DNA of 38,688 nucleotides, from positions 1-38,688 of the forward strand of contig BTVI01000032.1 in NCBI GenBank assembly GCA_045862955.1, in the 5' to 3' direction. Within the stretch, counting starts at the first letter, position 1; every line of letters starts with the position of its first letter. A program made the translations under genes and the position numbers. Shown one piece after another: positions 4,002 to 38,688 of this stretch. Under the pieces are notes generated by a model. The model did no database searches. It saw only the letters and a program-made list of their open reading frames with translations, and was not told the origin of the DNA. Origin of the DNA: Fimbriimonadales bacterium. GTDB lineage: Bacteria; Armatimonadota; Fimbriimonadia; Fimbriimonadales; JABRVX01.

Positions 4002-4122
4002 TCCCATTCCCCCGGCGGCAGAGTGTACCACCCGCCTCGCACGGCGACGACCCGGGACAAGGGATGCACCTCCGCCGTTGGGCCTCACCTCGCTGGACAG
4101 TCTATCGCGGTGACTGCGTATT

Positions 4123-5400
4123 CCATGCCCCGGCCCGCGCCCGCCGACTGGCAGCTACCGACCGCATGCCTCGAACCTGAGGACCGCGCCGGGGCAATCC
4201 GAGGCTCACGACTTTCGGCTGCTAGGCTCGGCGGTGTACGCTAGGGCGGCGCAGTGCGCGGGACGCGGCCCGGGGCATCGGGTGCTAGTCTCTCCCTCCC
4301 TCTCCCCCGTTCGCGGGGGAGAGGGTTGGGGTGAGGGGGTCATCACCAGCCCCTGGCTTTCGGTGCCTCGACGCTTCGGCTGCTCGGGGGGCGCTGGGCG
4401 AGAGCTTGGTGTCAGACGGCAGCCGAAACGTCTAGGCATGGAAAAGGATGGGTAAGGGGGGGGGGGGAAGCCGTCATGCTCGAAATCGTCATGCTGAGCT
4501 TGTCGAAGCATGACGCCATGAGCCGCGTGTGTCCTTTCCTCACCACACGCAAAGGATGGGTTAGAGGGACACCGTCATGCTGAGCTTGTCGAAGCATGAC
4601 GCCACGAGCCGCGCGTGTCCTTTCCTCCCCACACGCGGAGGATGGGTTAGCGGGAAACCGTCATGCTGAGCTTGTCGAAGCATGACGGGCGACAGAGGAA
4701 AGCGTCCCTGCTGAACCGTAGGGCTGGCGGCAGGCGGGGTCATGCTTCGACAAGCTCAGCATGACGGGTAGCGGTGTGCGGGGTAGGGGCCTGGCGGGCA
4801 GCCGGTGTGGCGGGTAGGGGTGCGGCGGGAAAGGCTAGACGGGTAGGGGTGTCAGGTGTTGGCATTCCGAGGTGTCGAGCCCGAACGATGTCATCGGAAG
4901 CCTTCCACCGGTCGCAACCAATACCGTCCTGCTGTGCTCCGTCATGCTGAGCTTGTCGAAGCATGACCTCGCCGCGCGCATTCCATGCCCCGGCCCGCGC
5001 CCGCCGCCCTGCAGCCACGAACCCCAAGCCCGCGCCGGGGCATCAATCGGGAAACCCGTGTCGGTGCGCCCTCGCCATAGGCATGATGGCGGCCTCCGAT
5101 GCAACGCTTGCGGCTTGTGGTTGCATGCTTCGACAGGCTCAGCATGACGGGCATGGGTGTGGCGGGTACTCCGTGCCCCGGCGCGGTCCTTGGGTTGGCG
5201 GTGTGCGGTGGGTTGGAGGAATGCGTCGGACGCGCGCCGGAGCGTGGAACACACCGCCGGCCCGGCGACAGCACGGCCCTCCCGCCGGAGAGCAGGGCGG
5301 GTGGCACACAGGAGATTGAGCGCCCCGGCGCGGTCCTTGGGTTGGCGGTGTGCGGCGGGTTGGAAGAATGCGGCGGACGCGGGCCGGGGCATGGAACACC
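4123..5400. repeat. Mosaic REP/MITE-like repeat array 1
   Basis: 27-bp palindrome GTCATGCTGAGCYTGTCGAAGCATGAC at 4488, 4574, 4660, 4739(rc), 4941, ~5122(rc), plus CCCTCTCCCCCG-TTCG-CGGGGGAGAGGG hairpin and TGCCCCGGC...GCCGGGGCA elements. Confidence 0.9.
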
Positions 5401-5499
5401 TCGTCGGGACGGCGGCGACTCCGCCAGGTGGATGCAGGGGAACCGGCTTGTGACCTCCTGGCAGTGGCAGGCCGGTGTCGGCTAGAATCCGCCTGACCG

Positions 5500-7302
5500 A
5501 TGGCGACCGACCAGTCGAAGATCCGCAACTTCTGCATCATCGCTCACATCGACCACGGCAAGTCCACTCTCGCTGACCGAATCCTCGAGAAGACAGGCGT
5601 GGTGCGCGGCGAGGCGCAGGAGCAGATGCTGGACCAGATGGACCTCGAGCGCGAACGCGGCATCACCATCAAGATGACTGCGGTCTCATTGCCATACACC
5701 GCTAAGGACGGCGAGACCTACAACTTCAACCTAATTGACACCCCCGGCCACGTGGACTTCACCTATGAAGTGAGCCGCAGCCTTGCCGCCTGCGAAGGCG
5801 CCCTACTGGTGGTGGACGCAACGCAGGGCGTCGAAGCGCAGACCATCGCCAACGCCTCCATGGCGATGTCCAACAACCTCGAGATCATTCCCGTCATCAA
5901 CAAGATCGATCTGCCGGTAGCCGACGTAGAGCGCACCAAGGAGGAGATCGAGCACGCCCTGGCGATTGACGCCTCAGACGCCATTCTAATCAGCGCGAAG
6001 ACTGGCGAGGGAGTGGACGACGTGCTCGAGGCCGTCGTGCACCGCATCCCGCCGCCGTACGGCCATCCGGACAAGCCTCTTCGCGCACTCATCTTCGATA
6101 GCCACTTCGACAGCTATCAGGGAGCCGTCGCGTACATCCGCGTGGTGGATGGGGCGATCCGGCGCAACCAGAAGATCAAGATGATGGCGACGCGCTCCGT
6201 GTACGAAGTCCACCAAGTCGGCGTGTTCCGCCCGAAGATGGAGCTCACTCAGGAGCTGACGACGGGACAAGTAGGGTTTCTAACCGCCGCGATGAAGGAG
6301 ATCGGTGAGGCGAACGTCGGCGATACCGTGACCGACGCCCAGCACCCCGCCTCGGAGGCGCTGCCCGGGTACCGCAGGGCGCAACCGATGGTGTTCTGTG
6401 GCCTCTACCCAACGGACGGCGAGAGCTACGAAGACCTGCGCGACGCTATCGAGAAGTTGCACCTGAACGACGCTTCGATCCACTACGAACCAGAGACATC
6501 GGAGGCACTCGGGTTCGGATTCCGATGTGGCTTCCTCGGCTTGCTCCACATGGACATCGCGCGAGAGCGGTTGGAGCGCGAGTTCGGATTGGACCTCATC
6601 CTAACCTCGCCCACCGTGAATTACCGCGTTCACATGACTAACGGCGAGTGGCGGGAGATATCCAACCCTGCCGAAATGCCGGAAGCGCACTACATCGAGC
6701 GAATCGAGGAACCGGTGGTGGAGGCGACGATCATCGTGCCGAGCGACTTCGTCGGCGCGGTGATGAAGCTGGCGCAGGAGCGAAGAGGCGCCTTCATCAA
6801 GATGGAGTATCCGAGCCACAACCGCACCCTGCTCCACTACAAGCTGCCCCTGGCCGAAATCCTGATGGACTTCTTCGACGCACTGAAGAGCCGGACCAAG
6901 GGCTATGCGAGCCTGGACTACGAGTTCGCAGGATACGAGACCAGCAAGATGGTCAAGGTGAACATCCTGCTCAACCAGGAGCCGGTGGACGCGCTATCGT
7001 TCATCACGCACGCCGACAAGGCGTACACGAGAGCACGGGCGATGGTGGACCGCTTGAGGAAGGTGGTCCCGAGGCAGCAGTTCGAGGTGCGCATCCAAGC
7101 GGCCATCGGAGCGAAGGTGATCGCTGCGGAATCCGTCAAGCCCTTCCGAAAACACGTCACGGCAAAGTGCTACGGCGGGGACATCACCCGCAAGCGAAAG
7201 CTGCTGGAGAAGCAGAAGGAAGGCAAGAAGCGGATGAAGAGCATCGGGGCCGTCGAGGTACCCCAAGAAGCCTTCCTTAGCGTGCTTCAGCTCGACGAGT
7301 AG
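5500..7302 (+). CDS. lepA: Elongation factor 4 (LepA)
   Basis: [18 protein letters not shown] and [25 protein letters not shown] motifs. Confidence 0.98.
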
Positions 7303-7789: not shown

Positions 7790-9320
7790 TGCTCTCCTCT
7801 CGGCCACCCGCGGCCTGCGGTGCCGCCGGGGGACGTGAATTCGCCATCCCGGCGATCTCAGTTCTCGGCCGAGGACGCCGGAATGTTCCATGCCCCGGCT
7901 CGCGCCCGCCGCATTCCTCCAAGCCACCGCACACCGCCAACCCACGGCCCGCGCCCGGGCATGGAATGCGCGCGGCGAGGTCATGCTTCGACAGGCTCAG
8001 CATGACGGTTGCCAGCGTGACGGTGTCCCACTAACCCATCCTTTGCGTGTGGTGAGGGAAGGGCACACACTGCTCGGGACGTCGTGCTTCGACAGGCTCA
8101 GCATGACGAAGCTCAGCAGGAGGGTATTTGTTGCGACCGGTGGAAGGCTTCCGATGACATCGTTCGGGCTCGACACCTCGCAACGCCAACACCTAACACC
8201 CCTACCCGTCTAGCCTTTCCCGTCACACCCCCTACCCACCACAACCTTACCCGTCATGCTGAGCCTGTCGAAGCATGCAAACGCAAGCCGCAAGCGTTGC
8301 ATCGGAGGCCGCCATCATGAGTTCCATGCCCCGGCCCGCGCCGGGGCAGTTGGACTCCTCTCGGCCACCCGCGGCCTGCAGTCCGGCGAGGCTGCTCGTG
8401 ATTTCGCCGTCCCGGCGATGCGTGCCATGCCCCTGCCCGTCATGCTGAGCCTGTCGAAGCATGCAACCGCAAGCCGCAAGCGTTGCATCGGAGGCCGCCA
8501 TCATGCGGACGGCGAGGGGATGGTGGCACCGACACGGGTGTCCCGACTCTCCCCCCGGCTCGGTCCTCGGGCTCGCTCGGTGCGGTTCGCGGGTGCAGGT
8601 CGGCGGACGCGGGCCGGGGAATGGAATGAAACGCCAACACCTAACACCCTACCCGTCACACTCCTACTCGTCATGCTGAGCCTGTCGAAGCATGCCCTTG
8701 CTGCTGCCAAGCGGCGGACGGGGGCCGGGGCATACAGAAACGTCTAGGCATGGAATCTCCCTCCCTCTCCCCCGTTCGCGGGGGAGAGGGTTGGGGTGAG
8801 GGGGCCACCACCAGTCGCTGGCCTTGGGTGCCTCGACGTTCGGCTGCTCGGGGCGTCTCTGGACGAGAGCTTGGCGCCAGACGGCAGCCGAAACGTCTAG
8901 GCATGGAAAACGTGCGGTCGGCGGTCTCATGCTTCGACAGGCTCAGCATGACGTCGCTAGTGACCCATCCTTTGCAAGTGGTGCGGGCATACAACATGCC
9001 CTTTGCCGCGTCATGCTGAACGTCTAGGCATGGAACTGCCTGAGGTGAGGGATGTGAGCATGCTCTTTGTCACGTCATGCTGAGCTTGTCGAAGCATGCA
9101 AACGTCTAGGCATGGACGCAGCCTGGCGGACGCGGGCCGGGGCATATGCAAGCGTCTGGGCATAGGATCGCGCCTCCCTCTCCCCCGTTCGCGGGGGAGA
9201 GGGTTGGGGTGAGGGGCCACCACCAGTCGCTGGCGTTGTGTGCCTCGACGTTCGGCTGCTCGGGGAGCCGCTGGGCGAGAGCTCGGCGCCAGACGGCAGC
9301 CGAAACGTCTAGGCATAGAA
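7790..9320. repeat. Mosaic REP/MITE-like repeat array 2
   Basis: About 7 full copies of the 27-bp palindrome (7980, 8081, 8253, 8439, 8670, ~8926, 9074), hairpin modules at 8763 and 9176, TGCCTCGACGTTCGGCTGC...GCAGCCGAAACGTCTAGGCA elements. Confidence 0.9.
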
Positions 9321-9425
9321 GGCGGGAACGCAGTGCGAGGCTGCGGGCGGGGCAAGTCGGGGACAGAGTAAGCGAGAGGGCGGAGCGGATACGTCCGCTC
9401 CGCCCTATGATCCAGCCAGATGGCT

Positions 9426-19032: not shown

Positions 19033-19101
19033 GGGCTGCCGAGATAGGTCCTGCTCTACCCCGAGGCGGGCCAAACGCCCTCCGTGAGGAAGGAGTTCGA
19101 A

Positions 19102-21630
19102 GTGCGAAAGCTCATCCGGATGACGGTGTCGGCAGGCGCGCTGATGGTTGTGCTCTCGCTGGGCGTCTCGGCGCAGTTTACCAAGGCGGGCGTTTCGGGC
19201 CCCGTCGCCGAGCGGTCCGTTACCCTCTCGTTCTCTCCCGACGAAGTCCAATTCGGTCGGCTTCAGGATTACGAGACCGTGACCATGCGGGACCTCGAAA
19301 TCCGCGTGCGAAAGGGTGAGCCGGTGCTGCCGGTTCGCTACGTGCGAATCGCTCTTCCCATCGGCTACGAGGCCTCGGACTTGCGGGTCGAGGCAAGCAA
19401 CCCGTTCGTCATCCCCGGTAGCCATCGGATCGCTCCTGGCACCGATCCGGTTCCGTTGTCGGCCCCGCCTCAGAGACCGCGCCTCGTCGAGGGGCCCGTG
19501 TATCGGTCGAGTGCGGCCTACCCGGGCGGGTTCGGCGAGCTGATCGGCACGGGAAGCAAGTCGGGCTACCCGATTGCCGACGTGGCCGTATACCCTCTGC
19601 AATACGAGCCCCAGAGCGGCCGGCTGACCCTCTACCGCGAAGTGCGCGTATCGGTATCTGCAGTGCCGAAGCCGGTGGAGGCACTGGTCACCGTGCGCTC
19701 GGGTTGGGCCGAAGAGCTCATGCGCGATGCAGTGCAGAAAATGGTGGACAACCCCGCAGACGTCCCGTGGTCCGCAGCGTGCATGACGGGCGACGACGTA
19801 TCGGCTGCATCGGATGATACCGTCGAGTACCTGATCATCACCAGCGCCGGCCTGGCTCCCACGTTCCAGCCGCTCGCGGACTGGAAGACCAAGAAGGGAG
19901 TGAAGACCGAGGTACTCACACTCACCTGGATCTACGCGAACTACTCCGGCGAGCAGTCGGGCGACAATCAGGATCGCATCCGGCACTGCATCAAGGACTA
20001 CTGGCAAAACCGCGGTACGGTGTACGTGTTGCTCGGCGGCGATGTGAACGTGGTGCCCTATCGTGCGGCCTATGCGATGGCCGACAGCAATGGTGCCGAC
20101 CTGCCGTGCGACCTGTACTTCTCCGACCTGAACGGCACCTGGAACAACGACGGAGACGCGTTCTTCGGCGAGTATCCGAGTGATGGCATTGACATGTATG
20201 CCGACGTTTATGTGGGCCGCGCTCCCGTGGGCTCTACCACGGAGGCGCAGCGCTTCGTGAACAAGGTGCTGCAGTACGAGGCAGAGGCATCGCAGGCTCC
20301 CCTTCCAACAGACTATCAGCTAAAGGTCTTGTTCCTTGCCTCCAGGCTGGATTCGAGCACCGACAGCGCCGCGCTAAAGAACCGAATCCAGACGGAAAGC
20401 GTGCCCACCCGTTTCACTTGCACCAAGCTGTACGAAAGCTCGGGCAACTTGAACCGCACGGCGGCGCTCAACGCCATCAATACCGGCTACAACCTGATCA
20501 ACCACTCCGGCCATGGCAGCGACGACGTCATTCAGGCGGGTGCAGACTACATTAGCGGCAGTGACATGTACAATCGCACGAACGCCCCGCGGTTCAGCGG
20601 TATCATGTACTCGCTCTCCTGCTATTCTGCAAACTTCCCCACCAACGACTCTCTCGCAGAGCGCTTCGTGTTGGCCCCGAATGGCGGCGGGTTCTACATT
20701 GGAAACAGCCACTATGGGTGGTATTGGGTCGGCTACGGGGACCAAGGCTTGTCGCTAACATTCGATCGGTACTTCTGGCGCGCCATGCTCAACCCGACCT
20801 ATAACTACTATCCGCTCGGGCAGGCCCACGGTGAAGGCAAGGACCTCGGCGTGAGTGCCGCTAAGTCGAGCGCACACGATCGCTACTGCCTCTACGAGCT
20901 CAACCTTTTCGGTGATCCCGAGACGCCGCTGTGGAAGAACACCCCGCAGGCGCTGGCCGTCAGCCATCCGAGCGAACTCGTGGCAGGGACGAGCACCTTC
21001 CAAGTGACCGTAACAGCAGGAGGCTCGCCGGTAAACGCAGCTACCGTTTGTCTGTGGAAGCCATCCGAGGTTTTCCTAACTGCTACCACGAACCCCTCTG
21101 GTGTCGCTACGTTCACCCCCTCGCCGACGACGCCCGGCACCATGTACGTGACGGCAACCAAGCGCGACTACCTCCCCGCGCAGAGCCAAGCCACGGTGTC
21201 GGTCGGGAGCCTCATGGGCTTCGTAACCCTCGAGCACCTCGCGGTCTCGCCGGGTGGCAAGGTGATTACCATCGAGTTCCGGACTCCGGGAACGACGAAT
21301 GTCGTGAAGACGTACGATGCAGTCCTGCAGGGCACGGGTCGGTACGACGTTCAGTTCTGCATGTCTGGCACCTATGACCTGTCGCTAAAGTACGCCAACT
21401 GGCTGAGACAGACACTGCCATCGGTGACGGTGGGCGTTGGCACGTCCGCGGACTTCGTGCTGAAGAACGGTGACTGCGACGGCAACAATGCCGTGGACAT
21501 TCAGGACCTGAACATGGGTCTTGCCTGCTTCGGAGCATCCGGGTTGGGTGATCTGGATGGGGACGGTGTGGTAGCGCTGACCGACCTCAACATCATCCTG
21601 ATGAACTTCGGTGCGATGGGCGATCCGTAG
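19102..21630 (+). CDS. Secreted C25 (gingipain-family) cysteine peptidase with propeptide and C-terminal dockerin-like module
   Basis: Signal peptide; YLIIT, YVLLGGD, DVYVGR, NHSGHG (His), SLSCY (Cys) and NLFGDP motifs; AAGGAG RBS before GTG 19102 (ORF opens at 19084). Confidence 0.92.
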   Translation: MRKLIRMTVSAGALMVVLSLGVSAQFTKAGVSGPVAERSVTLSFSPDEVQFGRLQDYETVTMRDLEIRVRKGEPVLPVRYVRIALPIGYEASDLRVEASNPFVIPGSHRIAPGTDPVPLSAPPQRPRLVEGPVYRSSAAYPGGFGELIGTGSKSGYPIADVAVYPLQYEPQSGRLTLYREVRVSVSAVPKPVEALVTVRSGWAEELMRDAVQKMVDNPADVPWSAACMTGDDVSAASDDTVEYLIITSAGLAPTFQPLADWKTKKGVKTEVLTLTWIYANYSGEQSGDNQDRIRHCIKDYWQNRGTVYVLLGGDVNVVPYRAAYAMADSNGADLPCDLYFSDLNGTWNNDGDAFFGEYPSDGIDMYADVYVGRAPVGSTTEAQRFVNKVLQYEAEASQAPLPTDYQLKVLFLASRLDSSTDSAALKNRIQTESVPTRFTCTKLYESSGNLNRTAALNAINTGYNLINHSGHGSDDVIQAGADYISGSDMYNRTNAPRFSGIMYSLSCYSANFPTNDSLAERFVLAPNGGGFYIGNSHYGWYWVGYGDQGLSLTFDRYFWRAMLNPTYNYYPLGQAHGEGKDLGVSAAKSSAHDRYCLYELNLFGDPETPLWKNTPQALAVSHPSELVAGTSTFQVTVTAGGSPVNAATVCLWKPSEVFLTATTNPSGVATFTPSPTTPGTMYVTATKRDYLPAQSQATVSVGSLMGFVTLEHLAVSPGGKVITIEFRTPGTTNVVKTYDAVLQGTGRYDVQFCMSGTYDLSLKYANWLRQTLPSVTVGVGTSADFVLKNGDCDGNNAVDIQDLNMGLACFGASGLGDLDGDGVVALTDLNIILMNFGAMGDP

Positions 21631-21649: not shown

Positions 21650-22690
21650 TCTCGAGGTGGGTGGCTGTGGTCCCCGCAGCCACCCACTGCTGTGGGCGCA
21701 TACACACCAGCTGGATATGGATGCATGCATACACACTGCTGTGCGCGCATGCAAGGCATTGTCATATCACGCTCCTACTCTCCCTTCCGTCATGCTGAGC
21801 CCGTCGTCATGCTGAGCCCGTCGTCATGCTGAGCTTGTCGAAGCATGACCCCGTACGCCGCATCCTACCGTTCCCTAGTTTCACCGTTAGGTGCGTGGCT
21901 GTGGACCTGGCAGCCACCCACTGTGGCGTTGGCATGCACACCCCCTGCTGTGGGTGCATGCATACACACTGTGGCGCCATACACGACACCGTGATATCCC
22001 GCCCCTAATCTCCCTCCCGTCATGCTGAGCCCGTCGTCATGCTGAGCCTGCCGTCATGCTGAGCCTGTCGAAGCATGACATCGTACCCCGCATCCTATCG
22101 CCCCCTGGTTTCACCGTTAGGTGCGTGGCTGTGGACCTGGCAGCCACCCAGTGTGGCGTTGGCATGCACACCCCCTGCTGTGGGTGCATACACACCAGCT
22201 GCATGTGCATGCAAGGCATTGTCATATCACGCTCCCATTCTCCCTCCCGTCATGCTGAGCCCGTCGTCATGCTGAGCCTGTCGAAGCATGACATCGGGCA
22301 CCGCATGGTGGATCCCCTAAGACGATAGGATGCGGCTAACGAGGTCATGCTTCGACGGGCTCAGCATGACGGATTTGGTATGCTCCGGCCATACAGGCTA
22401 GCTAGCGGCAGACTCTTCGTTGTCCTTCGCTGAAAGCTAGCGGGCGATAGCGTGCGGCTGGTGGTGTCATGCTTCGACAGGCTCAGCATGACGGATTAGC
22501 TCTGATTCGGAGATGCAGGCTATGCAGCGTCAAGGTCTTCGCTGTGCTTCGCTCAATGCTAGCGGGCGATAGCGTGCGGCTGGTGGTGTCATGCTTCGAC
22601 AGGCTCAGCATGACGGAGTGGGTCGGGGCTGGGGCTGTTTGCGACCATTGCGGCGTCCGATGTCATGCTTCGACAAGCTCAGCATGACGG
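21650..22690. repeat. Tandem REP-containing array 3 (230-bp and 122-bp units)
   Basis: REP stutters begin at 21789, 22019, 22249 (period 230); reverse REPs at 22344, 22466, 22588 (period 122) and 22662. Confidence 0.9.
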
Positions 22691-22706
22691 GCGGGAGCGC
22701 GGGTCG

Positions 22707-23936
22707 CTACTTCCCGTCCTTCGGGAGAATCAGACGGAAGGTGGTTCCCTGGCCGACTTCGCTCTCCGCTTCCAGGCGGCCCGAGTGCAGCTCGGCGATC
22801 TTACGGACGATAGACGTGCCGAGGCCTGTACCACCCACCTTGCTACTCTCCGCCGTGCCAGCGAGTACCCGATCGAGTACGTCTCTGGTCATGCCGCATC
22901 CAGTGTCAGCGATACTCAGTATCACCTCGGAGTCCGTCTCGTAGAGGTTCAGGGTCACTCGGCCGCCCTCGGGAGTTGCGTCCAGCGCGTTTAGTGTTAG
23001 GTTATAGATCGCACGCTCTAGCATCACCTCGTCGAACGGGACGATGATCGGACCGTTCACCTCTGCTACCAGTTCGATGTTACTCTGTCGTGCGCGGCGC
23101 TGCTGGTTCAGGAACTCGCGCGTTGCAACCAGGCTGATGTCGCCCTTATGCTTGGAAACGGCTAAGTCCTTGCCTTTCGCCAGGTCTGCTATCAGCTGAG
23201 CATACCGCTGTGTGCGCTGCGCCCCGTCTACGATGACGGAGGCGATCTCGCGCAGGGAGTGCAGTGGTTCCAGGTCCGGCTCAACCCCCAGGGTTTGCAG
23301 TGTGTTGCTGAGCGACTCCACGTCAATCATCAGTGTCATCGCGCCCATGGTGAGTGGAGCTACCTTATTCTTGATGTCGTGTGCGATGTCGCCCATCGCC
23401 TGCAGCCCCGTGGCTTTCTTTGCCTCGTCGGCGAGTTGAGAGTTTCGTATCACCATTGCAGACACGCTAGCCACGATCTCGAGTAGCAAGAGGTCCGACT
23501 CGGTGAAAGGGCCGCTGCGCTTGTTCAGCACTTGAACCACACCCACCGGCTCGGCCCCGGCGACGAGCAGCGGTACCGTGATCAGACAGCGAGTAGTTCG
23601 CTCGGTCACTTGGTCATAGCGCGAATCGTGCTCCTCGGAGCTCTCGACTTCGTTGTCTATCCGGCTCTTGCGCGCGACGAAGGTCGCTCCAGCTATGCCT
23701 TGGGTGTCGGGGAAGCTGTGGCCGCGGAGGCGCTCGTTCATCTCGGCCGGAATCACGTAGGCAAAGGTGAGCGTGCGCAAGACGGGATCGTGCATGTAGA
23801 TCGTTCCGCCTTCCGCGTCCACCAGGTCCACGCACACCTTCAGAATGCTCCGGAGCGAGCTGCCCACGCTCGGATTGGAGGACAGCACGGAGGTCATAGC
23901 ATGGATGGCCGAAACCAGGCGCTCCGCCTCACTCAT
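22707..23936 (-). CDS. GAF-domain sensor histidine kinase
   Basis: GAF (GVVQVLNK), H-box AHDIKN, N-box [15 protein letters not shown] and GTGLG; start moved to ATG 23936 to avoid overlap with purL. Confidence 0.9.
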
Positions 23937-26481: not shown

Positions 26482-27330
26482 ATGAAGGGCTTCGCACGAG
26501 TCCTCTCGCAAGTTGCCCGCCGCTGGCGCGCGGACGCGCTCCCCCATCACGCCGCCGCTCTCGCCTTCTACACGCTGTTCGCTCTCGCACCGCTGCTCGT
26601 CGTGCTGCTGGCTGCCGTCGGGTACGTGTACGGCTTCGAGGAGACTCGAGCGCGAGTAGTGGAGGGAGTCAACCTACGTCTTGGTGAGGACGCAGGTCAG
26701 CTCGTACACCGCATGCTGTCAGGAATAGGAAGTCACAAGGGGAGCGTGGCGACCACCGCTGCGAGCCTGTTAGTCTCCCTCTTCGCCGCGTCGAACGTCT
26801 TCTACCAGGCCAAGTTCTCGATAGACACCATATGGCGCGCGGGCCGCACTCTCACCGGCGCAGCACAGCTTGCCAAGACGAGGCTGCTCTCGGCTGCACT
26901 CGTATTCTGCGCGGCTTCCCTGCTTCTCTTCTGGCTGATCCTCGATGCCACGGTCCGCTTGCTGCGCGAGTGGCTGAGCGATTGGGTCCCATCATGGTTG
27001 CTCCATCGCGGTTTCGCCGAACCGATCGTCACCTGGCTTCTTGTCGCCATCATGTTTGCCCTCCTCTATGTCACCCTGCCACCGGAGCGGGTTTCCATAC
27101 GTAATGCCTGGCCCGGTGCAGCGATCGGTGCAATCTTGGTGACTACGGGTCAGCGCTTGCTGCTATGGTACGTCGAGGTGGCGGGCGTGCAATCGGCATA
27201 CGGCGCCGCCGTCGGTCCGGTGTTAGTAATGCTCTGGGTGTATGTGTCTTCTCTCGCGTTCTTTCTCGGCGCGGAGATAGTACTAGCATCGTGCTGCCCG
27301 GATCAGCACCCACGAGAGGCGTCATGCTGA
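26482..27330 (+). CDS. YihY/virulence factor BrkB family membrane protein
   Basis: AAALAFYTLFALAP, multiple transmembrane segments, SAYGA and LWVY...FFLGAE motifs. Confidence 0.9.
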   Translation: MKGFARVLSQVARRWRADALPHHAAALAFYTLFALAPLLVVLLAAVGYVYGFEETRARVVEGVNLRLGEDAGQLVHRMLSGIGSHKGSVATTAASLLVSLFAASNVFYQAKFSIDTIWRAGRTLTGAAQLAKTRLLSAALVFCAASLLLFWLILDATVRLLREWLSDWVPSWLLHRGFAEPIVTWLLVAIMFALLYVTLPPERVSIRNAWPGAAIGAILVTTGQRLLLWYVEVAGVQSAYGAAVGPVLVMLWVYVSSLAFFLGAEIVLASCCPDQHPREASC

Positions 27331-27527
27331 GCCTGTGGAAGCATGAGGCCTGGAGTTGCGGTGATACTATCCATAGGCGATAGCGTGCGGCTTGCGGTGT
27401 CATGCTTCGACAGGCTCAGCATGACGGGTTTGGTATGGATCCGGCGATGCAGGCTAGCTGGCGGCAGGGTCTTCGTTGTGCTTCGCGGAAAGCTAGCAGG
27501 GTTGGCAGTCGCTGAAAGCTAGCGGGA
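27320..27527. repeat. REP pair plus one copy of the 122-bp unit
   Basis: Degenerate REP at 27320, reverse REP at 27399; flanks match the 22344-22614 units. Confidence 0.85.
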
Positions 27528-27680
27528 CCTACCATTCAGGGCTGGCCGGGCACGATAGGACTGAGAAGCCGATCCGTGGATCGCGGCATCCGACATGGCT
27601 GCCGGCAGAGCATTCAACAGTCGTTCGGGGTGACAGAGCCGTAGTAGGTACCCGATGCGATGGTGAGCATAGCGAAACCT

Positions 27681-27831
27681 CTCCTTCCCGCATAGGCGAG
27701 GGGAAGCTCATGGGCCTGCCGCTAGCAGATATCATGCTTGGCTCCTTCCCGCATACGCGAGGGGAAGCTGTTCGAGTGACATGGAACGCGCAGCCGACGC
27801 ACCTCCTCCCCGCATACGCGAGGAGAAGCCG
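27681..27831 (+). CRISPR. Orphan type I-E-like CRISPR mini-array (3 repeats, 2 spacers)
   Basis: 29-nt repeats CTCCTYCCCGCATASGCGAGGRGAAGCYS at 27681, 27742, 27803; exact 61-nt period; two unrelated 32-nt spacers. Confidence 0.7.
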
Positions 27832-27986
27832 TCGCCGCACTACGAGAGAGCGAATCTAGCAAGGGATCGTATCCTGTGAGTGGTCTCGGGTTCGAGACAG
27901 ACGTGGTAGGTTGCGGACGCACAAAGGACGAGGCGCCCGGCTGGGTGCCGGGCGCCGAGCCCAAGACGCCGCGCATCGAGGTGCGA

Positions 27987-28490
27987 TCACCGGATCGGAG
28001 CTCGGCCGAACGGGCAGATCCCCGTCCCGCGGCCGTAACCCATGCCTGGTCCGAAGCCGCCCTGTCCGCGGCCTGCTCCCATGCCGAACCCGCCGCGATT
28101 GCGACCACGCGGCATGGTCTGCATCAGCTCCTGCTTCACCTGGAGCGAGTTGAGCTGCAGCTCGTGCAGGTCGCTTCGGAGAGCATCCAGCTTGGCCTGC
28201 AGCACTTCTCGCTGCGCCGGGTCGGTCGTTCCCGCGAGCTCGAACTGCACGCTGCGGATCTCGTTGTGCAGCCGTACGACCTCGTCCAGGAACGCTTGCT
28301 GCTCCGGGGTGCTGGGTGTCACTCGGGTCCACCAACCGCCCGCGTTAGGGTTCGGAGTGGTGTATCCATAGGGGCACACCCAGCCTCGCTGAGCTCCTCC
28401 GTTTCCGCTACCTTGGCCCTGCCCCACGGCTGCGAGCCCCAGTCCAACCGCCACTACCACTGCCAGGCCGATCACCACATACCGTTTCAT
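27987..28490 (-). CDS. Periplasmic ZraP/Spy/CpxP-like protein with Gly/Cys-rich ends
   Basis: Signal peptide; TPEQQ (LTxxQ-like) then helical hairpin; GWVCPYG and GICPFG motifs; AGGAGG RBS. Confidence 0.65.
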   Translation of the reverse strand: MKRYVVIGLAVVVAVGLGLAAVGQGQGSGNGGAQRGWVCPYGYTTPNPNAGGWWTRVTPSTPEQQAFLDEVVRLHNEIRSVQFELAGTTDPAQREVLQAKLDALRSDLHELQLNSLQVKQELMQTMPRGRNRGGFGMGAGRGQGGFGPGMGYGRGTGICPFGRAPIR

Positions 28491-28533
28491 TTCGTTGCCT
28501 CCTCTTGCGCTTGCGTTTTGCGCGTTCACCCAT

Positions 28534-28562
28534 ACGGACGATGGTGAGCGGATTCGATTCCC
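28534..28562 (-). promoter_or_regulatory. ECF-type promoter GGGAATCG...TCGTCCGT (copy 2)
   Basis: Same -35/-10 motif as the one upstream of the ECF gene at 30611-30640. Confidence 0.6.
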
Positions 28563-28571
28563 TGGTGGGGA

Positions 28572-29588
28572 CTACTTCAGGCCGGCGGCGATGCGATCCA
28601 GCTCTGACTTAGGCAGGTCGCCGAGCACTAGGCTGGTCACGCCGTTCTTCGTAACGACCGCAGTGGTAGCCGACGCGCGCATCGGAGAGCCACATAGGCC
28701 GCGCCCCTTGCCCTGACCGTACCGGTGCTGTTGGCCACGGCCCTGACCAGCCCCTCCCGCCGCGGTCCGTCCACACTGCGGACACACCTCGTGGCGTGAG
28801 ATGATGGACACGGAGCCGAGCCCGTCCACATAGCGCGCAAGGCAGTAGGGAACGCCGCCCGAGCAACGAGACAGGTGGTACCCGTCGAAGACGAATCCGG
28901 GTGTCATGTAGCTCGGCACCGGCACCCGGAACCCCACCTCGCGCGATATCTCCTCTCTGGTGTAGTGCCGGGCCGCGTCCGAAGCGACTTCGCGCACCTT
29001 CCAACCCTGAGGCACGCGGAACAGGTCCGGGGCAAGCGCAGCCCGGTAGTCAACGCTGGAGTACACCGTCTGAGCCGTCAGCCGACCAGAAGCGTCGAAC
29101 GAATCGCTCCGAAGGATCAGGGAGGTCTCCCGATCCACCCACAGCCGGCGCGACGGGCTACCCGGTCGCTTGCCACGCACGTAGATCACATCGCACGCAC
29201 GCCCAGCAATCGTGGCGCTGCCAGTGATCGTCACCTCGTAGTTGGCCAGCAACGTCTCGATGCGGCTAGGCTCCTGGGTGGGCGAGGCTTTGATGGCAGT
29301 CTTCGTCGTGGCATCCAGCTCGTACAGGTTCTTGCCGTCGTCCAGCACGATCCGCTGCTTGCCACCCGGCAGCAAGTATAGGATTCGGGATAGCGGGCCC
29401 TTCTGATACACCGTCGCCTGCACGGTGCTCCTAGCGCCCTGTCCTGCGCTCGTGGTCTGCACTTTCGCACTGTACGAAAGCGTCTTCTTGGCCTTCTCAG
29501 CCTGCCGCAAGCGTTCGGCGGCGCTTTGCCCCGAAGCGACGACCACGAGCGCGAGAAGGCCAACAGTGAGGCTAAGGCGCATCGCCAT
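28572..29588 (-). CDS. MucB/RseB-like (LolA-fold) periplasmic sigma regulator
   Basis: Signal peptide; IAGRACDVI, RRLWVDRETSLILR and FRVP motifs; lies directly downstream of an anti-sigma gene. Confidence 0.8.
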   Translation of the reverse strand: MAMRLSLTVGLLALVVVASGQSAAERLRQAEKAKKTLSYSAKVQTTSAGQGARSTVQATVYQKGPLSRILYLLPGGKQRIVLDDGKNLYELDATTKTAIKASPTQEPSRIETLLANYEVTITGSATIAGRACDVIYVRGKRPGSPSRRLWVDRETSLILRSDSFDASGRLTAQTVYSSVDYRAALAPDLFRVPQGWKVREVASDAARHYTREEISREVGFRVPVPSYMTPGFVFDGYHLSRCSGGVPYCLARYVDGLGSVSIISRHEVCPQCGRTAAGGAGQGRGQQHRYGQGKGRGLCGSPMRASATTAVVTKNGVTSLVLGDLPKSELDRIAAGLK

Positions 29589-30030
29589 CGCTTGCCTCCA
29601 GCCCCACCAGGCCCAGGTGCACCCTATCGGCGAGCGGGTCGTTCCAGCCCAGCAGAGCGTGCTGCCGCTCGTAGCCGACCTCGAAGTCCTCCTGTGCCAC
29701 CTCCCGAGGGGTCAACGCGGCCCGCGGCCATGCCAACCAAAGGGCGACTGCAAGCACAGCCGCACCCACGGGGGCCCAGGCGTAACGCAGGCGATAGGCG
29801 CGCTTCGGCCGGCGGGCTTCCAGGTGCGGCTCGATGCGCGCCCAGAGGTCGGGCGGTGCCTCCTCTTGCACGCTCGCGAAGAGATGGGTGTCAACGGCAT
29901 CCAGAGCCTTCAGTTCCTGCGCGCAGGAGGCACAGGTGGCGACATGCTGCTCCACAGCACGCCGAAGCCGCCCGTGGAGCCCCCCGAGCTGGTATTCCGG
30001 AAGCAGCGATCGCATCCTGTCACACCGCAT
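29572..30030 (-). CDS. Zinc-finger (zf-HC2) anti-sigma factor
   Basis: HxxxCxxC (HVATCASC) plus one transmembrane segment; overlaps the ECF gene. Confidence 0.88.
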   Translation of the reverse strand: MRCDRMRSLLPEYQLGGLHGRLRRAVEQHVATCASCAQELKALDAVDTHLFASVQEEAPPDLWARIEPHLEARRPKRAYRLRYAWAPVGAAVLAVALWLAWPRAALTPREVAQEDFEVGYERQHALLGWNDPLADRVHLGLVGLEASDGDAP

Positions 30031-30583
30031 CGCCGGCCACCTCCGAACTGAGCTCACCCGTGCCCGCCATAGCGCGTCGCAGCGCCTCGCGTGCGCGAGC
30101 CAGGCGGGAGACCACGGTGCCTTTCGGCAGCCGCAGCACTCGCCCGATCTCCTCTACCGACATCTGCTGCCCGTAGTAGAGGCTGATCACCTGCCGATGC
30201 TCTTCGCTGAGTGCGGCAACGGCGTCGTGGAGCGCCTCGGATCGGGCGTGCTCGATCGCCTGAGACTCCGGTCCTGGCATGGGGTCCGGAAGTTGCGGTG
30301 GGATGGGTTCGCTCGGCCGCGAGGACTTGCGGAAGTCCTGCACCTGACGCACGGCTATTCGGAACAACCAGGTCTTGAACGCCTCGTTGTCCCTTAGAGC
30401 ATCCAGTCCATTCCACGCTTTGGCGAACACTTGCACCGTAAGGTCCTCTGCGTCTTCCTTCCGGGAGACCATCCTGCGAACGAATGCGAAGACCCCGGTG
30501 CCGTAGCGCCGGTACAACTGCTCGAAGGCTGACCGGTCGCCCGAGCGCGACTGCTCGACAAGCACGCTATCGGGTGTTTCCAT
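30020..30583 (-). CDS. ECF RNA polymerase sigma factor
   Basis: DAEDL, FKTWLFRIA and region 4 EIGRVLRLPKGTVVSRLARAR. Confidence 0.93.
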   Translation of the reverse strand: METPDSVLVEQSRSGDRSAFEQLYRRYGTGVFAFVRRMVSRKEDAEDLTVQVFAKAWNGLDALRDNEAFKTWLFRIAVRQVQDFRKSSRPSEPIPPQLPDPMPGPESQAIEHARSEALHDAVAALSEEHRQVISLYYGQQMSVEEIGRVLRLPKGTVVSRLARAREALRRAMAGTGELSSEVAGDAV

Positions 30584-30610
30584 TCGCTCGACATGCTGTT
30601 CCCGCATACC

Positions 30611-36203: not shown

Positions 36204-36953
36204 ATGTGCGAGCAGGATGAACCCAAGGTGGCGAGCGCAGAGAAGCAGCGAGACAGCTATACGGCTCAGTTCGCGGTTCGAGAAGGCCGACCTGTGGAAG
36301 AGCAGCCGCTGCCTGCCGAGTTCCAGAGCCGCTTCGAGACGCAGACCGATTACGAGTGGAAGCGCGTCTACCCGGCCCCGAAAAGCGAGCAGGCCCTGCG
36401 CGAATACCGGGAGGGGAATCGTGCCTTTCGGGAGGACCGTGTGCTGGACGCAATAGACGCCTACCGACGCTGCCTCGACATTGAGGACTACGCACCGGCG
36501 CAGCAGAACCTCGCCGTCGCCTACCTTCACGAGGCGTCTGCCGAGGCTTGGCGCGAATGCGAGTGCATTCTGAAGGACCTGATCGCTCGATTCGAACCGC
36601 TCATTGCCGATGAGCAAGCCCGCACAAAAGCCGGGTTGACGCTCGACCAGGCGGCTTCGGTGCTCGCTCCGGCGTATAGGAATTTGGCAGAGCTGTATGC
36701 TCAGCAGGGAGTCGGCGAGCGATCTCCAAAGAAGCTCTCGGAGGCAGCGGGTCTTACGCGTCGAGCGCTGGCCCTGATGCCGCAGAATCTGCCGTGGTTG
36801 CTCGAACTTTGGGGCATCCAGCACGTGCTCGGCAATGCCGACGAAGCGGCCGCCGCACTGAAGCAGGCGGCAGAACTGGAAGGCTTCGACACGTTGGTCG
36901 CTCATGCGCGAGAAAAGTACATCGCGCTACAGGTGAAGTATCATGCAGGCTAA
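36204..36953 (+). CDS. Tetratricopeptide-repeat protein
   Basis: TPR-like helices (AIDAYRRCL, AQQNLAVAY, AYRNLAELY); AAGGAG RBS. Confidence 0.75.
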   Translation: MCEQDEPKVASAEKQRDSYTAQFAVREGRPVEEQPLPAEFQSRFETQTDYEWKRVYPAPKSEQALREYREGNRAFREDRVLDAIDAYRRCLDIEDYAPAQQNLAVAYLHEASAEAWRECECILKDLIARFEPLIADEQARTKAGLTLDQAASVLAPAYRNLAELYAQQGVGERSPKKLSEAAGLTRRALALMPQNLPWLLELWGIQHVLGNADEAAAALKQAAELEGFDTLVAHAREKYIALQVKYHAG

Positions 36954-36975
36954 GGAGCTTGCTGACAAAGTCTTT

Positions 36976-37046
36976 ATGCCCCGGCCCGCGTCCGCCGGTT
37001 GGCAGCACTGCGGTGACGAAGCGAAGCCGAGGACCGCGCCGGGGCA
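36976..37046. repeat. Solitary MITE-like module B
   Basis: ATGCCCCGGCCCGCGTCC...GGACCGCGCCGGGGCA, near-identical to 38057-38126. Confidence 0.8.
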
Positions 37047-37110
37047 CGGGTCGGAGCATCCCGCGTCGCTGCAGATGTGGACTTTTTCAACAGGTCCTAA
37101 GGAGGCCACC

Positions 37111-37251
37111 ATGAAAGCCTTGCGTCTCATTCTTGCCACGGTTGTCCTCTGGGCGGGCGTCTGCTTGGCATTCGCTCAGCCCGACACGGACTACTCCTCT
37201 TGGCAACAGGTCGAGATCTCCAAGAAGGACGGAGACATCATCGGCGACTAG
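37111..37251 (+). CDS. Small secreted peptide or truncated gene (46 aa)
   Basis: TAAGGAGG RBS; classic signal peptide MKALRLIL...AFA. Confidence 0.55.
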   Translation: MKALRLILATVVLWAGVCLAFAQPDTDYSSWQQVEISKKDGDIIGD

Positions 37252-37299
37252 CCCGATAGGGGCGTGCGCCGTTGCACCGGAGGAAGACCGGAGGAGTAG

Positions 37300-37926
37300 G
37301 TGATGGGCGAGATAGGCGAGTCGAGATATGCGTCTTTAGCCGCCGCAATCCGTGCGGGCGGTGAGGACGCGCGCCGCGCCATGGACGAGCTGGTGCGCGC
37401 CGAGCGCGCTCACCTGGCACGCACGCTTTGGCGCGAGTTCCCCAAGCTTCGGGACGAGATCGAGGATGTCGTGGCCGAAGCCTTCGAACGTGTATGGCGT
37501 GGGGCGCAGAAGTGCGACTGCTTCTCGCCGGAAGGCACCTACGCCAGTTTTCGCGCACTGGTGACCAAGCAAGCCTCCTACTTGGCACTGAGCGCGACTC
37601 GCAAGGCTGCGGTGCGAGACGCCCGAGCCGAGGTGACGAGCCTGGACGATCCTTCGTGGGACGGACGAGTCCGCGAACCAGCTGCCGACCAGGATTGGGA
37701 ACGAGCGGTTATCGGGGAGATCGAGGCGGAAGCGGTGAAGACACGGCTGGCGACCCTAATAGGTACGTTGACGGAACGGCAGCGCGTCATCGCGGAGATA
37801 CTGCTTCGAGAAGACGGAACGGACGCGAACGCGGCGATCGTGGGGGCTCTCGGATGTTCCGACGGCGCCGCGCGCGAGGCGAAACGTGCCGTCCGCGAAC
37901 GCCTTCGCCAGCTTCTGCGGTCCTGA
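37300..37926 (+). CDS. Divergent ECF-type sigma-70 factor
   Basis: EIEDVVAEAF region 2 motif, SLDD linker, LTERQR and C-terminal HTH; start GTG 37300 or ATG 37303. Confidence 0.7.
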   Translation: MMGEIGESRYASLAAAIRAGGEDARRAMDELVRAERAHLARTLWREFPKLRDEIEDVVAEAFERVWRGAQKCDCFSPEGTYASFRALVTKQASYLALSATRKAAVRDARAEVTSLDDPSWDGRVREPAADQDWERAVIGEIEAEAVKTRLATLIGTLTERQRVIAEILLREDGTDANAAIVGALGCSDGAAREAKRAVRERLRQLLRS

Positions 37927-37945
37927 TCACTCGCTCGCAACCATT

Positions 37946-38688
37946 TTCCATGCCTAGACGTTTCGGCTGCCGTCTGGCGCCACGCTATCGTGCAGCGACC
38001 ACGCGAGCAGCCGAACGTCGAGGCAACCGAGGTTTCCATGCCTGGACGTTTTCTCCATGCCCCGGCCCGCGTCCGCCGGTTGGCAGCACCGCGGTCACGA
38101 AGCGAACCCAAGGACCGCGCCGGGGCGAGAGACGGAACCCCCGCGTCGGTGCGCCCTCGCCGTCGGCATGGTGGCGGCCTCCGATGCAACGCCTGCGGCT
38201 TGCGGTTGCATGCTTCGACAAGCTCAGCATGACGAGTAGGAGTGTGACGGGAAGGGCGTGACGGGTAGGAGTGTGGCGGGAAGGGTGTGACGGGTAAGGT
38301 GTGACGGGAAGGGTGTGACGAGTAGGAGTGCGGCGGGAAGGGTGTGGTGGGTAGCCGGTGCGGCGGGTAGGGTGTGGCGGGTAGGGTGTGACGGGTAGGG
38401 GTGTGGTGGGTAGCCGGTGCGGCGGGAAAGGCTAGACAGTTAGGGGTGTTCGGTGTTGGCGTTGCCAGGTGTCGAGCCCGAACGATGTCATCGGAAGCCG
38501 TCCACCGGTCGCAATCAATACCGTCCTGATCAGCTTCGTCATGCTGAGCCTGTCGAAGCATGACCTCGTCGCCGCGCACTCCATGCCTAGACGTTTCGGC
38601 TGCCCTCTGGCGCCACGCTATCGTGCAGCGACCACCCGAGCAGCCGAACGTCGAGGCAACCGAGGTTTTCCATGCCTGGACGTTTTCT
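37946..38688. repeat. Mosaic REP/MITE-like array 5 with G-rich VNTR (runs off window end)
   Basis: Module D at 37951 and 38584, module B at 38057, REPs at ~38207(rc) and 38538, about 13 tandem GGGTGTGRCGGGWA units. Confidence 0.9.

Follow-up and report, generated by a model that had tools for sequence, protein, structure and literature searches.

How new CRISPR arrays and repeats originate is an open question; off-target integration is a proposed route in nature and has been demonstrated in E. coli under over-expression. The locus described here, three hairpin repeats at an exact period in the genome of a Fimbriimonadales bacterium, bears on this question; it may be read as a decaying array that arose out of place, as a regulatory crRNA-like locus or as one more dispersed hairpin family. 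The window, by which we mean the whole stretch of DNA analysed, is all of contig C32 (38,688 nucleotides), one of the 94 contigs of a 3.36 Mb genome (62.7% GC, 97.6% complete). The array and its neighbours are the following:

26482..27330, plus strand: YihY/BrkB-family membrane protein gene (PF03631), upstream of the array
27319..27437, no strand assigned: inverted pair of the genome's abundant REP-type hairpin (families D1 and D3), unrelated to the array repeat
27681..27708, plus strand: repeat copy 1, 28 nt (5 nt, 6-nt arm, 4-nt loop, 6-nt arm, 7 nt), presumably the newest copy
27709..27741, plus strand: insert 1, 33 nt, unique in the genome, first base C
27742..27769, plus strand: repeat copy 2, altered at position 17 (27758) in a second strain, which breaks a stem pair
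27770..27802, plus strand: insert 2, 33 nt, unique in the genome, first base G
27803..27830, plus strand: repeat copy 3, the most diverged copy (3 and 4 differences), presumably the original target hairpin
27932..27956, minus strand: GC hairpin of 10 bp that follows the final ECF-operon gene and recurs in the congener G001
27987..30607, minus strand: genes for an ECF sigma factor, a zf-HC2 anti-sigma factor, MucB/RseB and a secreted protein, a candidate Spy/CpxP-like protein as a lead only

The array consists of three hairpin copies of 28 nt and two unique 33-nt inserts, absent elsewhere in the genome, and its repeats begin at 27681, 27742 and 27803, giving periods of 61 and 61. The sequence-only reading had described 29-nt repeats and 32-nt spacers at a 61-nt period; its coordinates and period stood and its lengths did not, because base 29 after copies 1, 2 and 3 is C, G and G, and the unit is hence best taken as 28 + 33. 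No fourth copy was found 61 nt upstream or downstream. Over the 28 positions, copies 1 and 2 differ once, copies 2 and 3 three times, and copies 1 and 3 four times; 24 of the 28 columns are identical across all three copies, against a maximum of 12 in simulated windows of the same dinucleotide composition (n=60). The target hairpin has its palindrome at positions 6-21 and is repeat-like, though not the canonical resident repeat. The stem change noticed earlier in all three repeats is a C8-A19 mismatch (pair probability 0.0) that every copy carries, and the duplicated unit therefore appears to have been imperfect already. On folding, the minus strand of copy 3 gives an 11-bp stem (z -4.65), and this copy may therefore be a worn REP-like hairpin. 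An Rfam search returned nothing near the gathering score.

The possibility that the repeat belongs to a dispersed REP family, which had been named as one outcome that would refute the array view, was considered and rejected: at up to 6 mismatches the genome holds its three copies here and no other, and they have no terminal tag. The nearest look-alike, at C25:431-520, has 7 mismatches and stands in two copies 58 nt apart.

With regard to the surroundings, the ECF stress operon said to adjoin the array was confirmed by its domains, and no link between the operon (27987..30607) and the array was shown. The conserved 10-bp hairpin that sits between them is a possible terminator, although it failed the T-run rule. 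The abundant REP-type hairpin upstream of the array amounts to 887 cores across the genome, and intergenic stretches of the window at 4100-5500, 7850-9330, 21650-22710 and 36950-38688 are dense with nested families of REP-type hairpins. The window also holds a gingipain-family (Peptidase C25) protease gene with a propeptide and an Ig-like domain (19084-21630, plus strand). The statement that the window lacks cas genes agrees with our scan, in which no cas or mobile-element domain was found among 28 scanned of its 149 ORFs; genome-wide searches for cas1 and cas6e gave matches on contigs C9 and C72 only.

A search of the whole genome for cas genes, as had been proposed, yielded a type I-E operon on C72 (C72:1430-7645) with cas8e (scored below its cut-off), cas11, cas7, cas5, cas6e and cas1e. 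The type I-E architecture ascribed to the array thus has a counterpart with the same 61-nt period on another contig, and the objection that the genome might have no such system falls away. Cas1e is full length, above the cut-off of its model (TIGR03638), and its named homologues are from Armatimonadota; aligned with solved Cas1 structures, it retains the active-site motif residues. It is followed by a putative cas2-like ORF, assigned from position and appearance with no HMM match, whose stop lies only 13 nt before the true I-E array, and this array apparently extends onto contig C51. The inserts of the resident array are 33 nt long in 44/46 cases and begin with G in 44/46, which matches the E. 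coli rule of a 33-bp protospacer with a PAM-derived G as first base (PMC10011333, in excerpt). Cas3 was not found in the assembly by three HMMs, the third of which did detect it in the related genomes G019 and G001, nor by tblastn with the G019 and G001 proteins. A type III locus with 37-nt repeats is present on C9. As to the main nucleoid protein of the lineage, neither of two candidates turned up: searches for the HU/IHF family (PF00216) came up negative in 40 of 41 genomes of the order, including this one (the match in the remaining genome is a longer, atypical protein, to which nothing here clearly corresponds), and an HMf-type histone as HU substitute was found in none of the five genomes tested. 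A search of the literature on this point returned nothing.

The C32 array is one of about 15 cas-less loci in which copies of a 28-base hairpin enclose unique inserts of 33 bases. At every period, the genome was searched for duplicated blocks of about 28 nt whose flanks differ, outside the true arrays and with the commonest REP family set aside. At period 61 there are 23 loci, whereas the other 45 periods in the range 45-90 average 1.96 and never exceed 7; when loci whose insert recurs elsewhere in the genome are dropped, 15 unique-insert loci remain at 61, and the neighbouring periods (50-75) average 1.12 and reach at most 6 (P about 1e-12). The 28-nt scan window favours blocks of about that size, and the spike at 61 is independent of the window. 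After addition of C6:70781, a perfect 28/28 pair that the insert filter had removed, the 16 pooled loci match at positions 1-28 in 13-16 of the 16 pairs and at 20 flanking positions in 1-9; the register was picked partly on identity and with a 28-nt window, so the edge of the block is not fully independent of it, and free maximal duplicated segments cluster too, at 27-30. The loci use many different hairpins, the duplicated block is sharply 28 nt, and the geometry of 28 + 33 is identical to the unit of the resident type I-E array. Two copies are present at eleven loci, three at four (the array at C32, and C7, C12 and C71) and 11 at C20; at several palindromes of the series the orientation is ambiguous. 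Among REP hairpins of the CGTC-1 type, which several of the loci have as their repeat, 16/30 neighbour distances of up to 200 nt equal 61, with inverted dimers at 53-76. Chance or replication slippage could be proposed for a genome that is rich in repeats and has background loci at other periods, but the triple identity far above simulation, inserts unrelated to each other and a spike at one period make this origin extremely improbable.

The inserts of the ectopic loci bear on their origin. Their first base is G in 18/27 (P 1.7e-4); this falls to 10/19 without the longest array, at C20, which supplies 8 of the G-first inserts, one of them a variant of another, and to 9/16 if only the first insert of each locus is taken. 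Native position 29 is G in 7/16 loci, and insert 1 of the C32 array begins with C, against the G expected from an AAG-type PAM. The frequency of TA is 0.041 (34/832) in ectopic inserts, 0.047 and 0.040 in true spacers and 0.024 in the genome (P 0.002 against the genome). By a Markov likelihood of the host, the ectopic inserts could be told apart neither from genomic sequence (P 0.12) nor from true spacers (P 0.13), and none of the unique ectopic inserts has a long match elsewhere in the genome. The search of both C32 spacers against phage, plasmid and host DNA that the sequence-only reading had called for came back empty. No protospacer for the inserts was found above chance in the genome itself or in the phage and plasmid collections, nor in five exact scans of IMG/VR, one of which used a true spacer and was likewise without a match.

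On these grounds we consider it likely, as a reading of sequence comparisons, that the loci are natural neo-CRISPR arrays produced by off-target integration by the lineage's own Cas1e-Cas2, and that the C32 array is now decaying. A Cas1e-Cas2 complex carrying a 33-bp prespacer would bind a genomic palindrome with CCC-rich and GGG-rich arms and would attack 5 nt ahead of the 16-nt palindrome and 7 nt past its end, and repair would duplicate 28 bp. A second hit on the new upstream copy would give three copies with the oldest at the 3' end; the order of divergence at C32 fits two such rounds at the 5' side, with copy 3 as the original. Errors of this type may be commoner for want of an HU/IHF gene, none having been found, and the scars may persist because the intergenic regions are laden with repeats. 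We know of no other enzyme that leaves a unique 33-nt insert and a 28-bp duplication at many unrelated hairpins. The duplication and insert are those of the resident integrase (28 + 33), the genome carries a cognate Cas1-Cas2 (cas1e above its cut-off, the cas2-like ORF putative), and the C32 target is a palindrome in the hairpin register of a repeat and yet non-canonical: the three copies share 12, 12 and 15 of 28 bases with the resident I-E repeat. In E. coli, Cas1-Cas2 is recruited by the repeat palindrome and in vitro integrates beside non-CRISPR inverted repeats, and IHF helps to restrict it to the leader in vivo (PMC5389526, in excerpt); in a type III-A system, off-target integration is suppressed by HU (PMC13769266, in excerpt).

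The series might instead be a product of REP biology, with DNA trapped between hairpins, preferentially in a 61-nt unit, by a non-CRISPR enzyme of the REP machinery (a RAYT-type Y1 transposase or an Ssn-type nuclease). For 7 of the 15 targets other copies do exist in the genome, several of the CGTC-1 REP type (family in Di Nocera et al. 2013, PMC3733652, in excerpt). Y1 transposases are present in this genome and in G001, and the last base of 18/27 ectopic inserts is C, as is the base just before the REP tag. On the other hand, the remaining 8 of the 15 repeats, C32 included, are single-site sequences without the REP tag, and they are not REP family members because no other copy exists at up to 5 mismatches; the most abundant REP of the genome shows no spike at 61, and genome G002 is positive for a Y1 transposase and yet has no such hairpin pair. 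Overall, we regard this explanation as unlikely.

A sample of GTDB genomes (14 of 64 parts scanned), which gave 119 loci with direct repeats of the CGTC-1 REP, bears on both readings. The mode of the periods is 61 (15/88 unique inserts, with 10 at 62), in genomes where cas1e was not found, which favours a REP enzyme. Against one, the periods are spread from 47 to 77, and the second copy retains the C/T tag base in 67/73 pairs at other periods and in 10/15 at 61 (P 0.019), as expected were the duplication at 61 to begin after the tag base; a purine precedes the second copy in 5/15 pairs at period 61 and in 6/73 at other periods. Among the loci checked (50 of the 75 planned), cas1e was found in 0/8 foreign genomes with 61-nt REP pairs and in 7/42 of the others, and no Cas1 of any kind was found in four tested genomes with such pairs. 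The prediction of cas1e across taxa therefore failed; loss or non-assembly is possible, as these are mostly metagenome bins that may be incomplete. A Magnetococcales bin (L095, L158, L159, L171, L180) and a gammaproteobacterial bin (L164, L185, L190) each have several REP pairs at period 61 with unique inserts, and no Cas1 was found in either assembly.

Strains and relatives were also compared. As to conservation, proposed earlier as a check, in a second strain (runs from three studies) the three-repeat array is intact, with 14 differences over 27440-28700, and in the congener G001 it is not conserved. Among the 12 listed of these 14 differences none falls in a spacer, and the one at 27758 breaks a stem pair of copy 2. 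No empty allele of the C32 array was found in the second strain, and the junction in G001 is not syntenic. Most intergenic regions are too diverged in G001 for comparison of orthologous sites. At two sites of the series a comparison was feasible: the site orthologous to C52:7306 holds a single copy, with a gap of 61 nt in the global alignment, and that orthologous to C17:70721 has one partial copy, the downstream flank being diverged in both.

The congener itself has five 61-nt pairs. A scan of 1.86 of its 3.2 Mb gave 3 loci at period 61, two of them with sharp 28-nt blocks and G-first inserts, and its counts at periods 70-76 are nearly all its own true array; a pattern search, read by eye, returned 11 hairpin pairs, 8 inverted and 3 direct (two at 61, one at 74). 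Neither cas1e nor cas7e was found in the G001 assembly. A metagenome Cas1e 83% identical to the resident one is consistent with cas1e being present in the genus and having been lost or left unassembled in G001. In two other relatives, G019 and G014, which are cas1e-positive and without HU/IHF, no ectopic locus was found in 340 kb and 345 kb, respectively, where about 3 would be expected at the density of this genome; loss of HU/IHF is hence not sufficient. The G019 sample showed no repeats at any period tested, and the CGTC-REP 61-nt pattern occurs in 2/228 genomes of the class, both in this genus. HU/IHF loss is permissive at most, and the repeat-free G019 sample and this confinement to one genus indicate that abundant hairpins in tolerant intergenic DNA are probably needed as well.

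Whether the C32 array does anything depends on its hairpins. The canonical stem has a probability of 0.0-0.11 in copy 1, 0.0-0.6 in copy 2 and 0.84-0.94 in copy 3 with one pair at 0.0, compared with 0.99-1.0 in the true repeat, so that a stable Cas6e-type stem-loop is not present in each array repeat. No promoter- or terminator-like site was called in 27250-28100, and no sigma-70-like site. Matches of the spacers to the genome are at shuffle level, the PAM-adjacent seed matches reaching 12 nt and those of shuffles 8-14. Poor hairpins, no called promoter and shuffle-level seed matches together lead us to regard the array as a decaying scar that likely makes no efficient crRNA, in agreement with the decaying ectopic array put forward in the sequence-only reading, given the I-E system on another contig and a repeat that is not a dispersed REP.

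The regulatory crRNA suggested as its alternative did not hold up. Under this explanation, a selected CreA/CreR-like mini-array, processed in trans by Cas6e, would supply guides with which a Cascade lacking Cas3 represses a promoter of the host or of cas genes. The genome does encode Cascade, and the failure to find cas3 makes binding without cutting plausible; the array is kept in two strains with its spacers unaltered among the listed differences, and it lies downstream of yihY in the same sense. Against this, the stem is poorly populated in repeats 1 and 2, the second strain breaks another of its pairs, and spacer matches do not exceed those of shuffles; neither a promoter match beside a PAM nor a position next to cas genes was found, and the congener does not conserve the array. 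A regulatory role of the C32 array is thus unsupported, and we rate a selected regulator as very improbable here. A regulatory use of a Cas3-less Cascade is possible in principle, more so for the sister arrays with perfect stems.

The array could also be the relic of an older or horizontally acquired I-E array that lost its cas genes and is unrelated to the other 61-nt loci. Its standard I-E layout and most diverged 3' copy would suit a relic, and cas loss and transfer by mobile elements are two of the three origins proposed for isolated arrays (PMC13142298 citing Shmakov 2020, in excerpt); there is also a faint similarity (E 0.1) to the repeats of two plasmids, of Streptomyces and Kitasatospora. 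However, the stem is broken in all three copies, as though the unit was imperfect from the start, the 39 matches of the repeat core in metagenomes are all single, chance-like and never arrayed, the scanned ORFs contain no cas or mobile-element domain, and a separate story would be required for each of about 15 different repeats. We hold such a relic to be decidedly unlikely.

Elsewhere in the series, the locus at C20:50152-50789 has 11 copies on a CGTC-type REP at period 61, with internal duplications, and its seven distinct inserts are all G-first; it is the best candidate for a working new array. A second strain has no new insert there; 7 substitutions are listed for its terminal units, and the internal duplications break its contigs. 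At C71:8600-9173 an inverted REP dimer carries 61-nt units on both arms, one arm with three copies and unique inserts and the other with a tandemly amplified unit. The C71 and C12 arrays have perfect stems. A bolder version of off-target integration would have a leaderless, Cas3-less I-E module without HU/IHF write foreign DNA into hairpins throughout the chromosome, with the REPs as a nursery and C20, C71 and C12 as working arrays, their repeats wholly new, that now load Cascade with guides. This we consider rather unlikely; if it were true, the de novo birth of functional CRISPR arrays from REPs would be displayed at every stage in one genome.

Neo-CRISPR arrays made in E. coli by non-canonical Cas1-Cas2 activity were described by Nivala, Shipman and Church in 2018 (as summarised in bioRxiv 10.1101/148544 and PMC7054753). 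They share with our loci an I-E-sized insert with target-site duplication, a position away from cas and a repeat peculiar to each site. They differ in being induced by over-expression, whereas ours are natural and common to strains; moreover, here there are about 15 loci per genome with repeated rounds (3 copies at C32, 11 at C20), in a host in which neither HU/IHF nor cas3 was found. According to bioRxiv 10.1101/148544, how commonly neo-CRISPR arrays form is unclear, and the evidence it cites from two other species is only circumstantial. Off-target acquisition is also a proposed origin of isolated CRISPR arrays (PMC13142298 citing Shmakov 2020, again in excerpt). As described there, these resemble the C32 array in lying far from cas in a genome with a matching adaptation module, and differ from it in that its repeat is unlike the resident one and locus-specific, with no leader.

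CreA/CreR-type RNAs and viral mini-arrays have two or three diverged repeats and short unique segments, and are cas-adjacent or viral. The C32 array likewise has few diverged repeats and short unique segments, but it is neither cas-adjacent nor on a virus, has no match to a cas promoter above chance, keeps the full 61-nt period and lacks conservation in the congener. As regards the CGTC-tagged REPs, the sister loci C6, C12, C20 and C71 have this REP as their repeat, with an I-E-like 5-6-4-6 geometry; according to the excerpted description of the family, REP dimers are mostly inverted and variable in spacing, and the C32 repeat has neither the tag nor dispersed copies.

No title or abstract describing a genome-wide natural neo-CRISPR series was found, key subscription papers and supplements lying outside the search. 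For the mechanism itself there is precedent in laboratory E. coli. The weight of the finding lies in the series and not in the single C32 locus, which on its own is probably a neutral scar. The series is likely a natural record of how new CRISPR arrays arise: it is graded (2, 3 and 11 copies, on REP and non-REP targets) with one fixed geometry, and the genome also offers an integrase that can be cloned and, as no HU/IHF was found, a possible reason for low fidelity. It makes the birth of arrays testable in vitro and gives an empirical target motif for Cas1e-Cas2. It also cautions against presuming a regulatory role for every short orphan array with unusual repeats.

Two further observations concern other cas loci. 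Blocks of 36-43 nt are duplicated at periods 73-81 at C8:25137-25335, C33:25092, C6:18138, C6:97717 and C63:8564. These periods lie inside or on the border of those seen in the type III array, and the blocks are possible scars of a second Cas1, though the C8 spacers resemble each other. In G014, at C44:194-8213, type III-A-like effector genes lie directly upstream of cas6e, cas1e and an I-E-type array with two repeat variants, and the locus looks like a III-A/I-E hybrid.
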